A model generated the notes under the pieces. The model saw only the letters and a program-made list of their open reading frames with translations, had not been told where the DNA came from and ran no database searches. A stretch of 64,000 nucleotides of DNA from Sphingomonas taxi (GTDB taxonomy: Bacteria; Pseudomonadota; Alphaproteobacteria; Sphingomonadales; Sphingomonadaceae): assembly GCA_003240625.1 (NCBI GenBank), contig QFMX01000007.1, positions 84,623-148,622 of the forward strand. The letters run 5' to 3'. This document shows, piece by piece, positions 19,147 to 24,937 of this stretch (positions are counted from its first letter, which is position 1; each line of letters starts with the position of its first letter). The position numbers were made by a program, and so were the translations under genes.

Positions 19147-22100
19147 CTAAATCCCACCCTCATCCAACGACAGCAACGTCGCATTCCCCCCGGCACTCGT
19201 CGTATCCACCGAAACCGCCCGCTCCGCACAGAACCGATACAGATACCGCGGCCCGCCGGCCTTCGGCCCGGTCCCCGACAACCCCTCGCCCCCGAACGGC
19301 TGAGACCCCACAACCGCCCCGATCATCGACCGGTTGATATACAGATTCCCCACCGCAGCCTCGGCCTCGATCACTTCGGCCGCGCGCGCGATGCGGCTGT
19401 GCAGCCCCATCGTCAGGCCATAACCCTTGGCGTTGACCCGGGCGATCGTCTCGCTCAGCTTCCCCGCCTCCCAGGTCGCGACATGCAGGATCGGCCCGAA
19501 CCATTCCTGGTTCAGATCCTCGATCGCACCGATCCGCACCAATGTCGGCGGCACGAACAGCCCATCCGTCGGCACGTCGAGCGTCTTCAGCCACTGCCCG
19601 CGCACGCTCTCGCGGTACGCCATCAGCTTGTCGTACGCCGCCTGGTCGATCACCGGCCCGACATCGGTCGCGGGATCGCCCGAACGCCCGATCCGCAACG
19701 TCTCCATCGCGCCCGACAGCATCTCGATCACGCCGTCGGCGATGTCCTCCTGCACCAGCAGCAGGCGCAGCGCCGAACAACGCTGCCCCGCAGACCGGAA
19801 CGACGAGGCGATCACGTCCGCCACCACCTGCTCGGGCAGCGCGGTGGAATCGACGATCATCGCGTTGATGCCGCCCGTCTCGGCAATCAGCGGCACGATC
19901 GGGCGGTTGTCGTCGTCGAGCAGCGCCCGCGCGATCTTGCGCGCGGTCGCGGTCGACCCGGTGAACGCGACCCCCTGGATCCTCACGTCCGCGGTCAGCG
20001 CGGCACCGACTTCTGTACCGCCCGTGACGAGGATCAGCACGTCGGCCGGCACCCCCGCCTCATGCGCCAGCGCAACCGCAAGCGCGGCGATCCGCGGCGT
20101 CTGCGGCGCAGGCTTGGCGACCACGCTGTTGCCCGTCACGAGCGCCGCCACCGTCTGGCCTAGGAAGATCGCCAGCGGGAAATTCCACGGCGCGATGGTC
20201 GCCCAGACACCGCGGCCCTCGATATGCAGCATGTTGCGCTCGCCGGTCGGCCCCGGCAGCTCGATCGCCTGAAGGTTCGTCCGCGCCTGCTGCGCATAAT
20301 AGCGACAGAAATCGGCCGCCTCGCGCACTTCGCCGATCGCATCCGCGATCGTCTTGAACGCCTCCTGCACGCAGATCGCCATCAGCTCGTCGCGGTGCTT
20401 CTCGAGCAGATCGGCGAGCCGTTCCAGACAGGCCGCCCGATCATCCACCGGCATCCGAGACCAAGCCGGAAACGCCGCATGCGCGCGACCAATGGCAGCC
20501 GCAACAGAACTCCCCTCCCGCTCGCGGGAGGGGTCGGGGGAGGGGATGACCAACCCGCGCTCGGAACCTGTGGAGGATAGGTCGGCCCCTCCCCCGACCC
20601 CTCCCGCAAACGGAAGGGGAGCAGAAACGGCCCGCACCGTCGCCTCCAACGTCCCCACATCACTCAAATCCAACCCGGCAGAATTCCGGTGCCCCCCGGC
20701 CCCGAACAGATCCACCGGCAACGGAATGCTAGGATGCCGCTTCCCCCCCACCGCAGCGATCTTCGCCACAGGATCCGCCAGAATCTCAGCCTCGGTCAGC
20801 CGTTCATCCGCCAACTGGTGCACGAAGCTGGAATTCGCCCCATTCTCCAGCAACCGCCGAACCAGATACGCCAGCAGGTCGCGATGCCCCCCGACCGGCG
20901 CATAAACCCGGCAATGATACCCGTTCTCCTGCACCAGCCGCTCGTACAGCCCGTCACCCATCCCATGCAGCCGCTGGAACTCAAAATCGCGCGAGTTGCC
21001 CGCCCACTCCATGATCGTCGCGACCGTCAGCGCATTGTGGCTCGCAAACGCCGGACGGATATTCTCCGCGGCAAGCATGTCCTTCGCGACCGCCAGATAC
21101 GACACGTCGGTCGCCGCCTTGCGCGTGAACAGCGGATAGTCCGCCAGCCCCTCGACCTGCGTGCGCTTGATCTCGCTATCCCAATACGCGCCCTTCACCA
21201 GCCGCACGTTCATCACGCGGTCCAGCCCGTTCGCCCATTCGATCACCGGCCGCGCGCGCTTGCCATACGCCTGCACCGCCATGCCGAACCCGTCCCAGCC
21301 CTTCAGCGACGGCAGCCCCGCAACCGCGCCGATGATGTCGAGACTCATCTCCAGCCGCTCGGATTCCTCTGCGTCGACGGTCAGCGCGATGCCCTTCGAC
21401 GCCGCCTGCACCGCCAGCGCCTCGAGCATCTCGGTCAGCGCGGGGACGCATTCGCTCCACCGCGCAACCTCGTACCGCGGGTGCAACGCCGACAGCTTGA
21501 CCGAGATCGAGTGCCCAGCCGCCGGATCGCGCCCGACCGCATCGACCGCACCGACATACGCCTGGAAGTATCGCTGCGCATCGGCATGCGTCCGCGCCGC
21601 CTCGCCCAGCATGTCGAAGCTCGCCGTGAAGCCCTTGTTCTCCGGCCGGCGCATCCGCTTCATCGCCTCGTCGATGGTGCGACCCATCACGAAGATCTCG
21701 CCCATCATCTTCATCGCCGCGCCGACCGCCTGCCGCACGAACGGCTCGCCCGCGCGGCTGATCAGGCGCCGCAGCGGTCCGGTCGATCCCTCGCCGACCA
21801 GCACGCGGCCGACCACCAGCCCCCAGGTCGCCGAATTGACGAGCTTAGAATTCGATTTCCCCGCGTGCGCCCGCCAATCGGCATCGCCCAGCTTGTCCGC
21901 AATCAGCAGATCCGCCGTCTCCGGATCGGGCACGCGCAGGAACGCTTCCGCCAGCGACAGCAGCGCGACGCCTTCCGACGAATTGAGCCGATATTCCTGG
22001 AGGAACTGGTTCACCCAGCCCTTGCTCTGTGCCGCCCGCAGGTCCGCGAGCAGTCCCAGCGCATGCCCCATCACCCGCTCACGCGAATCCGAATCGAGCG

Positions 22101-22294: not shown

Positions 22295-22753
22295 GTGGCG
22301 ACGATCACCACCGCGCAGATGCAGCAGCGCATCGGCACCGAGACGGTTTCCGACTGGGTCGAGGTCACGCAAGCCATGATCGACACGTTCGCCGATGCGA
22401 CCGGCGACCACCAGTTCATCCACATCGATCCGGTCCGCGCGGCGCAGACACCGTTCGGCGGCACGATCGCGCACGGCTTCCTGACGCTGTCGCTGATGCC
22501 GCTGCTTTCGTCGAAGGTGCCCGACGCCCCGCAGATCGAGGGTGCCAAGATGGGCGTCAACTACGGCGGCAACTCGGTCCGCTTCCTGACGCCGGTCCGC
22601 TCGGGTTCGAAGGTACGCGGTCGCTTCAAGCTGCTCTCGTTCGACGAAAAGCGCCCCGGCCAATGGCAGCAGACCAACGCGTTTTCCGTCGAGATCGAGG
22701 GCCAGGAAAAGCCCGCCCTGATCGCGGAATGGATCAGTCAGATTTTCGTTTGA
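22295..22753 (+). CDS. MaoC family dehydratase
   Basis: FADATGDHQFIHIDP and TIAHGFLTLSL motifs. GTG start after GAGGGG. Confidence 0.9.
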   Translation: MATITTAQMQQRIGTETVSDWVEVTQAMIDTFADATGDHQFIHIDPVRAAQTPFGGTIAHGFLTLSLMPLLSSKVPDAPQIEGAKMGVNYGGNSVRFLTPVRSGSKVRGRFKLLSFDEKRPGQWQQTNAFSVEIEGQEKPALIAEWISQIFV

Positions 22754-22760
22754 AACTAAT

Positions 22761-22867
22761 TCCCCTCCCGCTTGCGGGAGGGGTCAGGGGAGGGTCCGAG
22801 ATAGCCGCGATTGCGCCGGCTGCTTTGGCCACCCCCTCCCCCAACCCCTCCCGTAACCGGGAGGGGA
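22761..22867. repeat. Palindromic miniature element (family A)
   Basis: TCCCCTCCCGCTTGCGGGAGGGG...CCCCTCCCGTAACCGGGAGGGGA. Confidence 0.88.
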
Positions 22868-22886: not shown

Positions 22887-24065
22887 ATGCGCTCAGCCGT
22901 CATCGTCTCCACCGCCCGCACCCCCATCGGCCGCGCCTATCGCGGCGGCTTCAACAACACCCCGGCGCCGACTTTGGCGTCGCATTCGATCAAGGCCGCG
23001 GTCGAGCGTGCCGGCATCGACGGCGCCGAAGTCGACGACGTCGTCTTCGGCTGCGCGCTCCAGCAGGGTCATCAGGCCGGCAACATCGCCCGCACGTCCT
23101 TGCTCCGCGCGGGCCTCCCCGTCACGGTCTCGGGCATGTCGGTCGACCGCCAGTGCGCGTCGGGCCTGATGGCCATCGCCACCGCTGCCAAGCAGATCAT
23201 CACCGACAACATGGACATCACGATCGGCGGCGGCGTCGAGAGCATCAGCCTCGTCCAGACCCCGCAGATGCGCGTCGCGCCCGATCCCCAGCTGATCGCG
23301 ATGCACAAGGACGTCTACATGCCGATGCTGCAGACCGCCGAGGTCGTCGCCAAGCGCTACGGCATCAGCCGCGACGCGATGGACGCCTACGCGCTCCAGT
23401 CGCAGCAGCGCACCGCCGCCGCGCAGGCCGCCGGCTATTTCGACGCCGAGATCATCTCGGTCGATGCCAACATGGCCATCGTCAACAAGGAGACGAAGGA
23501 GGTCACGTACAAGGACGTGACCATCACCAAAGACGAGGGCAATCGGGCCGACACCACGCTGGAAGGTCTCCAGTCGCTGAAACCCGTGATGGGCCCCGAC
23601 TTCACGATCACCGCCGGCAACGCCTCGCAGCTCTCCGACGGCTCGTCGTCATCGGTACTGATGGAGGAGAAGATCGCCTCGCAGCGCGGTCTCCAGCCGC
23701 TCGGTCGCTATGTCGGCATGGCGGTCGGCGGCACCGAGCCCGACGAGATGGGCATCGGGCCTGTGGTGGCGATCCCCAAGCTGCTCAAGCGCTTCGGCCT
23801 GAAGATGGACGATATCGGCCTATGGGAACTGAACGAGGCGTTCGCGGTGCAGGTCCTGTACTGCCGCGACAAGCTCGGCATTCCGGACGAGTTGCTCAAC
23901 GTCAGCGGCGGCGCGATCTCGATCGGCCATCCCTACGGCATGACCGGCGCCCGCGCGACCGGCCACGCGCTGATCGAAGGCAAGCGTCGCGGTGCCAAGT
24001 ATGTCGTGGTGACGATGTGCGTCGGCGGCGGTATGGGTGCGGCGGGGTTGTTCGAAGTACTGTGA
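22887..24065 (+). CDS. Acetyl-CoA C-acyltransferase (thiolase)
   Basis: [32 protein letters not shown] and MCVGGGMG motifs. Confidence 0.95.
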
Positions 24066-24067
24066 TC

Positions 24068-24096
24068 TTGAAAGATGTGCCGATTTAGCGCATATG
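24068..24096 (+). promoter_or_regulatory. Putative sigma70 promoter of antisense RNA
   Basis: TTGAAA-N17-CATATG, with no plus-strand CDS immediately downstream. Confidence 0.55.
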
Positions 24097-24100
24097 CTTT

Positions 24101-24165
24101 ATCGGCGTTGCATACACCGCCTTTCTTGTCTGGGCCCCGGTCGTGTCAGCGGCTGGGGCTCAATA
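24101..24165 (+). ncRNA. Putative antitoxin sRNA (type I TA-like)
   Basis: Carries a 28-nt copy (blocks of 6+12+10) complementary to the SD/start of the 24299 peptide mRNA, followed by a G-U-containing hairpin with loop TGTCAG. Confidence 0.55.
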
Positions 24166-24206
24166 CGTTTGGGACTTGGGTGTCAGCCCAAGCCCCTCCC
24201 GTGCAC

Positions 24207-24299
24207 CTAGCCTTTGCGTGACACTTCGATGATCTTCACGACCAGGGTCGCGAAGGCGAAGAGCATGCCGAGGATCAAGCACAGATCGGCAAGTTGCAT
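24207..24299 (-). CDS. 30-aa hydrophobic peptide, putative type I toxin (MQLADLCLILGMLFAFATLVVKIIEVSRKG)
   Basis: Hand-translated. SD AAGAAAGGTAAGGT. One TM helix plus basic C-terminus. Below the ORF-track size cutoff. Confidence 0.7.
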   Translation of the reverse strand: MQLADLCLILGMLFAFATLVVKIIEVSRKG

Positions 24300-24395
24300 A
24301 CACCTTACCTTTCTTGTTCGACAGCAGGACTGCTGCCGTCGCTATCATGGCGCCCTCCACACCCTTTCACCAAGCGGCATCGCGTAACGGTACGC

Positions 24396-24420
24396 GCAAC
24401 CAACCTCCGCCCCACCCGTT
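24396..24420 (+). promoter_or_regulatory. EcfG-type promoter
   Basis: GCAAC-N16-CGTT, 35 nt upstream of the general stress protein gene. Confidence 0.65.
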
Positions 24421-24454
24421 CTCACAGGCAATCCAAGCCACTAGGAGAATGACG

Positions 24455-24937
24455 ATGGCCGACAAGGATACCCCGCAGGAAGTCGCAGCGAAGTTCATCG
24501 ACAAGCTGAAGGCCAGCCCCTTCGTGATGATCGGCCTGCATGATGGCCAGCATTCGGAGCCGATGACCGCGCAGATCGACGACGATCAGCCCAACACGCT
24601 GTTCTTCTTTGCCGGTCGTGACAACCGCATCGCCAAGGGCGGCGCGGCGATGGCGCAGTTCGTCGGTAAGGGTCATGACTTCTTCGCGTGCATGGCCGGT
24701 GACGTCTCGACGTCGAACGACCGCACGCAGATCGACAAGCTCTGGAGCAACCAAGTCGAGGCATGGTTTCCAGGCGGCAAGGAAGATTCGAACCTGACGC
24801 TTCTACGCTTCGACATCGATAGCGCCGAGCTCTGGGAAACCGACATCTCGATCGGCGGCCGCCTCAAGATGCTGTTCGGCGGTACGATCCAGTCGGACGA
24901 GTCGAGCAGCCACGCGGTGGTGAACTCGATCGCCTGA
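24455..24937 (+). CDS. Pyridoxamine 5'-phosphate oxidase-like general stress protein
   Basis: HSEPMTAQ, IDKLWS and AWFPGGKED motifs. SD AGGAGA. Confidence 0.85.
   Translation: MADKDTPQEVAAKFIDKLKASPFVMIGLHDGQHSEPMTAQIDDDQPNTLFFFAGRDNRIAKGGAAMAQFVGKGHDFFACMAGDVSTSNDRTQIDKLWSNQVEAWFPGGKEDSNLTLLRFDIDSAELWETDISIGGRLKMLFGGTIQSDESSSHAVVNSIA

Follow-up and report, generated by a model that had tools for sequence, protein, structure and literature searches.

A probable antisense-controlled membrane peptide and putative type I toxin-antitoxin module in Sphingomonas

Results

Elements between the thiolase and stress genes

The window, by which we mean the whole 64,000-nt stretch of Sphingomonas taxi DNA analysed, carries a compact group of elements between a thiolase gene and a Pyrid_ox_like gene of the general-stress type (Table 1). 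The first-pass annotation had described a minus-strand 30-aa ORF, a direct-repeat copy of its SD/start region downstream, a plus-strand TTGAAA-N17-CATATG promoter and two hairpins with the same TGTCAG loop. The ORF and the promoter hexamers with their 17-nt spacer were present as claimed, the two loops lie at 24144 and 24181, and all of the claimed elements were located within ≤2 bases of where they had been placed. The hairpins themselves were correctly located, but their extents had been drawn too short: hairpin B comprises 12 bp (24132–24161) and hairpin A 10 bp (24171–24196). The minus-strand leader hairpin was also recovered, with a predicted energy of −14.2 kcal/mol on the minus strand versus −10.7 kcal/mol on the plus strand.

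Table 1. Predicted features of the module and its flanking genes in the S. taxi window.
Feature	Position	Strand	Basis and remarks
Thiolase gene	22887–24065	+	Flank; stops 2 nt ahead of the antitoxin promoter; Pfam Thiolase_N/C
Predicted antitoxin promoter	24068–24096	+	−35 TTGAAA 24068–24073, 17-nt spacer, −10 CATATG 24091–24096
SD/start copy (sRNA anti-AUG and anti-SD arm)	24101–24129	+	CAU in small hairpin loop, stem 24104–24121
Predicted ~68-nt antitoxin sRNA	24103–24170	+	Ends inferred; fold energy, alignment
Hairpin B, sRNA 3' hairpin	24132–24161	+	Loop UGUCAG 24144–24149; probable terminator
Inter-hairpin spacer	24162–24170	.	8–10 nt in the family; plus strand ends CGTTT, probable sRNA 3' tail
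Hairpin A, mRNA 3' hairpin	24171–24196	−	Loop CUGACA (YUNR motif), complementary to sRNA hairpin B loop
30-aa single-helix membrane peptide, putative type I toxin	24207–24299	−	ORF, hydropathy, family comparison
SD and start region	24288–24317	−	Local hairpin 24288–24309: 3' part of SD paired with codons 3–4
5' leader hairpin of peptide mRNA	24319–24341	−	Compensatory changes
Possible peptide-mRNA promoter	24344–24373	−	−35 TTGGTG 24373–24368, 18-nt spacer, −10 CATGAT 24349–24344
Pyrid_ox_like (general-stress-type) gene	24455–24937	+	Flank, divergent from peptide gene; Pfam PF16242

No second copy of the peptide or of the twin hairpin was found in the S. taxi genome (3.34-Mb assembly, 79% complete), and there was no recombinase or transposase among the flanking ORFs. 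An Rfam scan gave no match near any gathering score at the module; three sub-threshold matches were put down to chance. A lone terminator-like site at 24075–24093 was discarded, being unconserved and at chance level (0.8 expected).

Distribution of the family

A first DNA search of 41 genomes yielded 10 matches including the window's own, and six of the others had the full module. With a profile built from seven peptides, matches were obtained in 130 of 301 Sphingomonas genomes, at 150 places in total. Of these places, 130 were fetched (ranks 31–50 omitted); a start codon was present in 127 and absent from three. The matches L008, L010 and L138, which fall within long genes, were rejected as false. 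Named records with an identical peptide were Sphingomonas, with strains of S. faeni and S. aurantiaca among the carriers of the locus. The peptide gene usually goes unannotated. According to a homologue search across Sphingomonadales, the family is common in Sphingomonas and occurs in few other Sphingomonadaceae: an order-wide draw gave matches in 10 of 301 genomes, comprising seven of the genus, the window's among them, and three from other genera of Sphingomonadaceae, and none in the 126 genomes of other families. A draw of 300 genomes from the class returned four weak matches, all inside frames of 99–558 aa, and one of 300 from the phylum returned two weak matches. Outside the genus, the RNA model found only single terminator-like hairpins without the peptide in the class and order draws.

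The family is also represented on mobile elements, including transfer or leading regions of plasmids. Three plasmid records match it: in a Sphingopyxis granuli MOBF plasmid the module lies in the transfer region, on a plasmid of Novosphingobium it has parB on one side and antirestriction/SSB genes on the other, and in an 853-kb Sphingomonas replicon it sits among chromosome-like neighbours. One viral contig carries the module, and annotated phages gave no match. Among 126 loci, the thiolase and stress genes both flank the module in 53, one of them in 25 and neither in 48. In L050, L054, L057, L059, L060, L066, L068, L113 and L237, the stress gene is upstream and the thiolase gene is replaced downstream (by putA in L237).

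The peptide and its relatives

The window peptide has 30 residues with a 17-residue hydropathy of 2.54; its length, SD and stop are conserved in the family. Searches of Pfam, NCBIfam and the PDB with the peptide or with alignments A1 and A2 gave nothing significant. The peptide matched PHROG 3488 weakly (E 0.064), and the ESM Atlas provided a lead at 0.89, in a cluster of which 29% is Hol_Tox. Six of 55 diverse members of subfamilies A and B matched Hol_Tox (PF16935) below its cut-off (best 17.2 versus 23.3 bits); the window peptide had no match at the 23.3-bit cut-off. None of the 55 members matched Fst/Ldr in Pfam or the PDB, and the family consensus contains no Trp or Pro and lacks the Fst/Ldr signature.

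A covariance model of the twin hairpin found matches in 74 of 150 genus genomes and uncovered a third subfamily, C, that the protein profile had missed. In subfamily C, three of 13 further paralogues scored above the Hol_Tox cut-off and had the same RNA layout; seven of 10 of these peptides matched PHROG 3488, six with E < 1e-4. One subfamily-C peptide had a sole PDB match, 7NS1 (E 1.4e-4), which a mixed profile also matched (E 1.5e-6). According to the excerpted text of PMC8309996, 7NS1 is SprG1-31 of S. aureus. The profile of the window's subfamily aligned with that of subfamily C over 21 columns (probability 88.6, E 2.7e-6). On this evidence the link of the window peptide to SprG/Hol-Tox appears to be transitive, via a short hydrophobic stretch and the shared RNA layout; the SprG1 similarity spans ~20 mostly hydrophobic C-terminal residues.

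A copy of the SD/start region follows its cognate gene

The direct repeat had been described from a few exact blocks, which we located at 24107–24118 (= 24293–24304) and 24120–24129 (= 24308–24317), with ATCGGC at both 24101 and 24285. Overall, the copy and the SD/start region match in 28 of 33 aligned columns; the differences are two gaps of 2 nt each and a single mismatch. The 12-mer block occurs just twice in the 3.34-Mb genome, and the copy scored 44, as compared with a best of 36 and a mean of 17.9 for 3548 long-ORF start regions of the same genome. The copy has consistent small deletions and a fixed distance behind the opposite-strand promoter.

For comparison between loci, a parser handled 106 of 127 loci, of which 105 were distinct, and skipped 21. 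In the window, the sRNA arm and the mRNA start region were predicted to form a duplex of −42.5 kcal/mol. Over the 105 loci, the mean predicted energy was −36.2 kcal/mol for cognate, −18.6 kcal/mol for non-cognate and −15.0 kcal/mol for shuffled pairs, and the cognate partner ranked first in 57 loci and in the top 10% in 102. Homologues that keep the ORF without the copy had been named as the case against the proposal; across the 105 loci the copy follows its cognate SD/start, and L116 is the sole exception among the fetched loci.

The predicted sRNA fold has an energy of −34.1 kcal/mol (z −3.99 on the plus strand versus z −1.30 on the minus strand), and its start is likely ~24103, as judged from the spacing to the −10 element. 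The CAU, said to be displayed in a small loop, indeed occupies the 4-nt loop of the predicted 5' hairpin of the sRNA. The hairpin predicted to sequester part of the SD is weak, averaging −6.3 kcal/mol versus −4.4 kcal/mol in synonymous recodings; it was more stable than these in 64/86 loci. A mini-ORF within the downstream copy was rejected as a candidate, its ATG being retained in just 49/105 loci. In subfamily B, the SD is near-perfect (GGAGGTG or similar) and an in-frame non-AUG codon (CTG, ACG, GTG, TTG, ATT, ATA or ATC) stands 6–7 nt after it in 19/19 loci examined (L114–L118, L121, L122, L124, L126–L133, L135–L137), and such a codon also follows the SD in L225, L229–L231, L257, L302, L303 and L307. 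It is possibly a second brake on translation.

Twin hairpins with a duplicated loop

The central hexamers of hairpins A and B were identical in 97/105 loci, across 14 loop types; in 10,000 shuffling trials, the number of identical loci averaged 15.0 and reached a maximum of 30. The eight non-identical loci comprised one parsing error and seven correctly parsed loci, four of the latter being close kin. Refolding of 19 of the 21 loci that the parser had skipped gave equal loops in 10, the remaining nine being broken, mismatched or unparsed; judged by eye, the loops differ in the skipped loci L080, L093 and L113.

The two hairpins carry opposite strand signatures. The G-U pairs of hairpin A numbered 102 on the mRNA strand versus five on the opposite strand, and those of hairpin B 104 on the strand opposite the mRNA versus two on the mRNA strand. 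Consistent with this, folding favoured the mRNA strand for A in 90 loci and the opposite strand for B in 99. The first-pass annotation had noted that G-U pairs of the 24134–24159 hairpin favour the plus strand, and hairpin B of the window was predicted at −24.6 kcal/mol on the plus strand versus −11.4 kcal/mol on the minus strand; for hairpin A the values were −18.0 kcal/mol on the minus strand versus −16.5 kcal/mol on the plus strand. An asymmetry of G-U and A-C pairs is the signature of an RNA strand. Compensatory changes were found at 12/12 pairs of hairpin B (58 sequences, 99.1% of cells paired), at 7/10 pairs of hairpin A (54 sequences, 98.7% paired) and at 6/7 pairs of the leader hairpin (57 sequences). 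Together, loop co-variation and strand-specific G-U pairs lend strong backing to the earlier suggestion that the two loops kiss. The YUNR motif occurs in the mRNA loop of 57/105 loci and is missing from that of 48; it occurs in the sRNA loop of five. The mRNA loop of the window has CUGA.

The spacer between the hairpins measures 8–10 nt in 91/105 loci. In two loci from another genus, L229 and L225, the hairpins are separate and the loops still equal; both have hairpin B with an oligo-U tail on the opposite strand, and hairpin A has a U-rich tail in L229. A second identical loop would be kept sensibly only if the mRNA stops before hairpin B, and the separated hairpins of L229 and L225 support an mRNA that ends ahead of it. 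In the window, hairpin A has no U-tract, so the 3' end of the mRNA is uncertain. Hairpin B is probably the terminator of the sRNA, possibly also serving thiolase read-through; a hairpin followed by CGTTT, as a terminator tail, was found in this genome at 98/2819 sites versus 159/6392 control sites. In a small clade (L126–L128 and L130), a short GTTCGC-type A loop is unlike loop B, and the ORF and anti-SD arm are intact. These loci could serve as natural tests of whether the loops have to kiss. Genome G558, of another genus, has four paralogues (L225, L229, L230 and L231) with four loop pairs and separated hairpins; the loops of L231 differ.

Promoters and hints of transcription

A motif-guided search, run without a shuffled control, found a promoter-like site on the antitoxin strand in 103/105 loci. 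It lies 25–48 nt beyond hairpin B, with TTGAA in 80 loci and a 17-nt spacer in 91. The family −10 consensus is TATRTA, with a T at the final position in just 10 loci; alphaproteobacterial promoters often lack this last T. The −10 element of the window is a rarer variant with C at the first position, as in 7/103 loci. On the toxin strand, a promoter-like site was found in 45/78 anchorable loci, which is weaker evidence than that for the antitoxin promoter. A generic sigma-70 scan called 0 sites at the module.

The expression look-up drew on contigs of four of 24 listed runs. Phyllosphere metatranscriptome contigs from three of the four, representing three studies, cover the module; run X6 has no cover over it. 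These contigs, unstranded and without a DNA control, stop at 24328, 24330 and 24331, within the predicted leader hairpin. Being unstranded, they provide a weak hint of expression. In two runs, contigs joining 24069 to 24443 represent relatives that lack the module. In three phyllosphere metatranscriptomes, homologues of the Pyrid_ox_like gene (24438–24900) were represented by contigs of very great depth; genes cannot be ranked by this measure.

Loop types, host descent and decay

On a thiolase tree of 61 leaves, loop type changed 36 times versus 37.2 times for shuffled labels, and the two loops agreed in 59/61 tree loci. Near-identical relatives with the same peptide have different loop pairs (L013, L016 and L019 versus L014 and L015); L013 and L014, with the alleles CUGACA and CUAGCA, do not differ in their start region. 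In L156, hairpin A is that of one group and the start region that of another. The simplest reading of this scatter is that the hairpin cassette is swapped horizontally. With such swapping, the loop changes on the tree are not independent co-mutations, since the loops, separated by ~37 nt, can travel together as a block; as far as sequence comparison goes, the 14 matched loop types would be the stronger point.

The peptide gene is broken or disrupted in its TM segment and the sRNA kept in seven loci (L067, L072, L098, L103, L112, L123 and L265), and an antitoxin is found without a peptide gene in five (L254, L301, L305, L306 and L312). The converse, in which the ORF is intact and the sRNA lost by deletion, was seen among the fetched loci in L116 only; L136, bounded by an insertion and a contig end, cannot be judged. 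This bias is what a toxin would predict, and the orphan sRNAs may persist merely as thiolase terminators. At L254 (genome G096), the thiolase site holds a full module and, behind it, an additional orphan sRNA that differs in type, and at L035 (G021) the thiolase 3' end is duplicated upstream of the module. Such tandem remains suggest repeated insertion or replacement at the thiolase site. In L305, L306 and L319, a GC-rich palindromic REP-like repeat replaces or abuts the peptide gene.

Discussion

Comparison between loci revealed a family of ORFs in which the two pairing sites co-vary, each hairpin can be assigned to a strand and a promoter is conserved. The membrane peptide is very probably under antisense control. 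The peptide is likely to be a toxin, and the locus is probably a type I toxin-antitoxin module that is carried on the chromosome and belongs to a family typical of Sphingomonas. The co-varying pairing sites and strand-specific hairpins thus favour the type I reading put forward in the first-pass annotation.

From this pattern we infer the transcripts and their ends, the order of pairing, toxicity and a physiological role. The minus strand would give a ~175-nt mRNA with the leader hairpin, a partly sequestered SD, a peptide of the SprG/Hol-Tox kind and hairpin A at its 3' end. The plus strand would give the ~68-nt sRNA, arranged tail-to-tail with the mRNA with little or no overlap (~9 nt predicted), such that recognition would operate through the duplicated sequence instead of through overlap. 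By analogy with par (PMC7472228, in the parts available), the hairpin-B loop of the sRNA would first kiss the YUNR-bearing hairpin-A loop of the mRNA; pairing would then spread from the CAU loop of the sRNA across the AUG and SD, blocking translation. The weak SD hairpin would delay ribosomes. On decay of the sRNA, the peptide would be made and the membrane damaged or depolarised, resulting in stasis or death.

The closest layout is that of par (RNA I/RNA II, Fst) of the Enterococcus faecalis plasmid pAD1 and other Fst-family loci, as given in excerpts of PMC7472228 and PMC4147584. As in par, there are convergent promoters (here the antitoxin site in 103/105 loci and the toxin-side site in 45/78), oppositely read direct repeats, an sRNA 5' part covering the toxin SD and start, and a membrane peptide of ~30 aa; the weak hairpin predicted at the SD may correspond to the SD-sequestering hairpin of par. 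In par the loops also make contact on the 3' side, where the toxin RNA frequently carries YUNR, and such a contact is predicted here from sequence; according to the same part of PMC7472228, YUNR is not universal among par homologues either. The placement of the antitoxin directly behind an upstream gene recalls the excerpted description of parEF0409. The Fst/par-type layout proposed earlier therefore stands for the repeats, convergent promoters and YUNR loop but not for the shared bidirectional terminator or the Fst/Ldr peptide signature. As far as those excerpts describe it, the par RNAs share one bidirectional terminator, and their loops are automatically complementary; the Sphingomonas module by contrast has two hairpins of opposite strand bias with a duplicated loop that must co-evolve. 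Unlike Fst/Ldr as characterized in that portion of PMC7472228, the family does not feature tryptophan and a P/D/S/T-XXX-G(C) context, and unlike par its host is an alphaproteobacterium.

The related peptides are instead those of SprG1/SprF1 and SprG2–4 of Staphylococcus aureus (excerpts of PMC8309996 and PMC6393307), Hol_Tox PF16935 and PHROG 3488, with which the family shares a length of 29–34 aa and a C-terminal part in which a hydrophobic helix leads into K-x-I-E and a basic tail. SprF works via overlapping 3' ends, according to part of PMC6393307, whereas the pairing sites here are duplicated and lie outside any overlap. SprA1/SprA1AS of S. aureus likewise has a 3'-located antitoxin and an interaction outside the overlap; its toxin is Fst-like, its RNAs partly overlap, and the accessible text of PMC8594479 mentions no duplicated loop pair. 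A search of what was available of the PMC8594479 supplement gave no match.

Several alternatives bear on this interpretation. It is unlikely that the RNAs overlap classically, both reading through the two hairpins in the manner of par or SprG/SprF, with the second loop a by-product. Read-through would leave no need for identical loops, yet 97/105 loci have them; the G-U biases of A and B are opposite, and in L229 the hairpins are physically separate. What speaks for overlap is that the mRNA strand carries no U-tract at hairpin A, that in the window this hairpin folds almost equally well on either strand, and that metatranscriptome contigs, though unstranded, span the whole module. We also consider it quite unlikely that the RNA control is real and acts on a small membrane peptide that is not toxic and regulates, for instance, a transporter or stress pathway. 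Such a role would suit a module that is mostly single-copy, sits at a stable thiolase/stress-gene site (both flanks in 53/126), encodes in the window a peptide lacking a significant toxin-family match and, in L116, tolerates loss of the sRNA. It is harder to reconcile with the patchy presence (130/301) and empty sites in relatives, the pseudogenes, orphan antitoxins and plasmid and viral copies, and the SprG1/Hol_Tox-like paralogues.

Extremely improbable, in our judgement, is that the ORF is a passenger and the repeats around it are features of the DNA (target-site duplication, att sites, or hairpins of the REP or IS-end type whose loop is bound by a protein). The G-U and A-C asymmetry argues against this, as do the copy's consistent deletions and its fixed distance behind an opposite-strand promoter, the occurrence of the twin hairpin once in the genome, unlike REP, and the lack of a recombinase or transposase in the flanking ORFs. 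In its favour, genomes either have the entire module between the thiolase and stress genes or lack it as a block (the 24069–24443 joint in two runs), the direct repeat bounds it, and identical loops could be DNA-binding sites.

The type I module may hold a further distinction, to which we give somewhat less than an even chance: two non-overlapping RNAs whose kissing complementarity is written twice, as at least 14 interchangeable loop codes whose swapping follows neither the host tree nor the SD/start code, with loop/start alleles acting as specificity groups and a Firmicute-type SprG/Hol-Tox toxin under par-like control. If so, resident or orphan antitoxins would neutralise only matching modules arriving on plasmids or phages. 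With both recognition sites duplicated, the family would supply natural matched and mismatched RNA pairs for testing the specificity of kissing loops, and possibly orthogonal RNA switches. A SprG-like toxin combined with par-like regulation would mean that toxin and control module mix.

Known type I systems are mostly from Firmicutes and Gamma- and Epsilonproteobacteria. In the portion of its text available, T1TAdb assigns 3'-located antitoxins to Gram-positive families only. A 2010 survey (PMC2887945) lists, in its rows for five alphaproteobacterial genomes (Sphingomonas, Sphingopyxis, Novosphingobium, Zymomonas and Caulobacter), zero type I loci; it also names four sphingomonad candidates, one of 36 aa (Swit_3117). 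The literature search, which covered subscription papers thinly, found no description of such a system in sphingomonads. The module is widespread and apparently undescribed; the family would place a type I system with a 3' antitoxin in ~40% of the sampled species of Sphingomonas, common plant and soil bacteria.

Two observations concern the surroundings of the module. Upstream of the Pyrid_ox_like gene, a plus-strand GCAAC-N16-CGTT sequence (24396–24420), which we take to resemble the EcfG general-stress promoter consensus, is kept in relatives and stands back-to-back with the peptide promoter. Short palindromic repeats, probably REP-like, occur in the window at ~20500–20660 (inside putA) and ~22750–22830 (after a MaoC-like gene), and surface as similar peptide stretches among the window ORFs.
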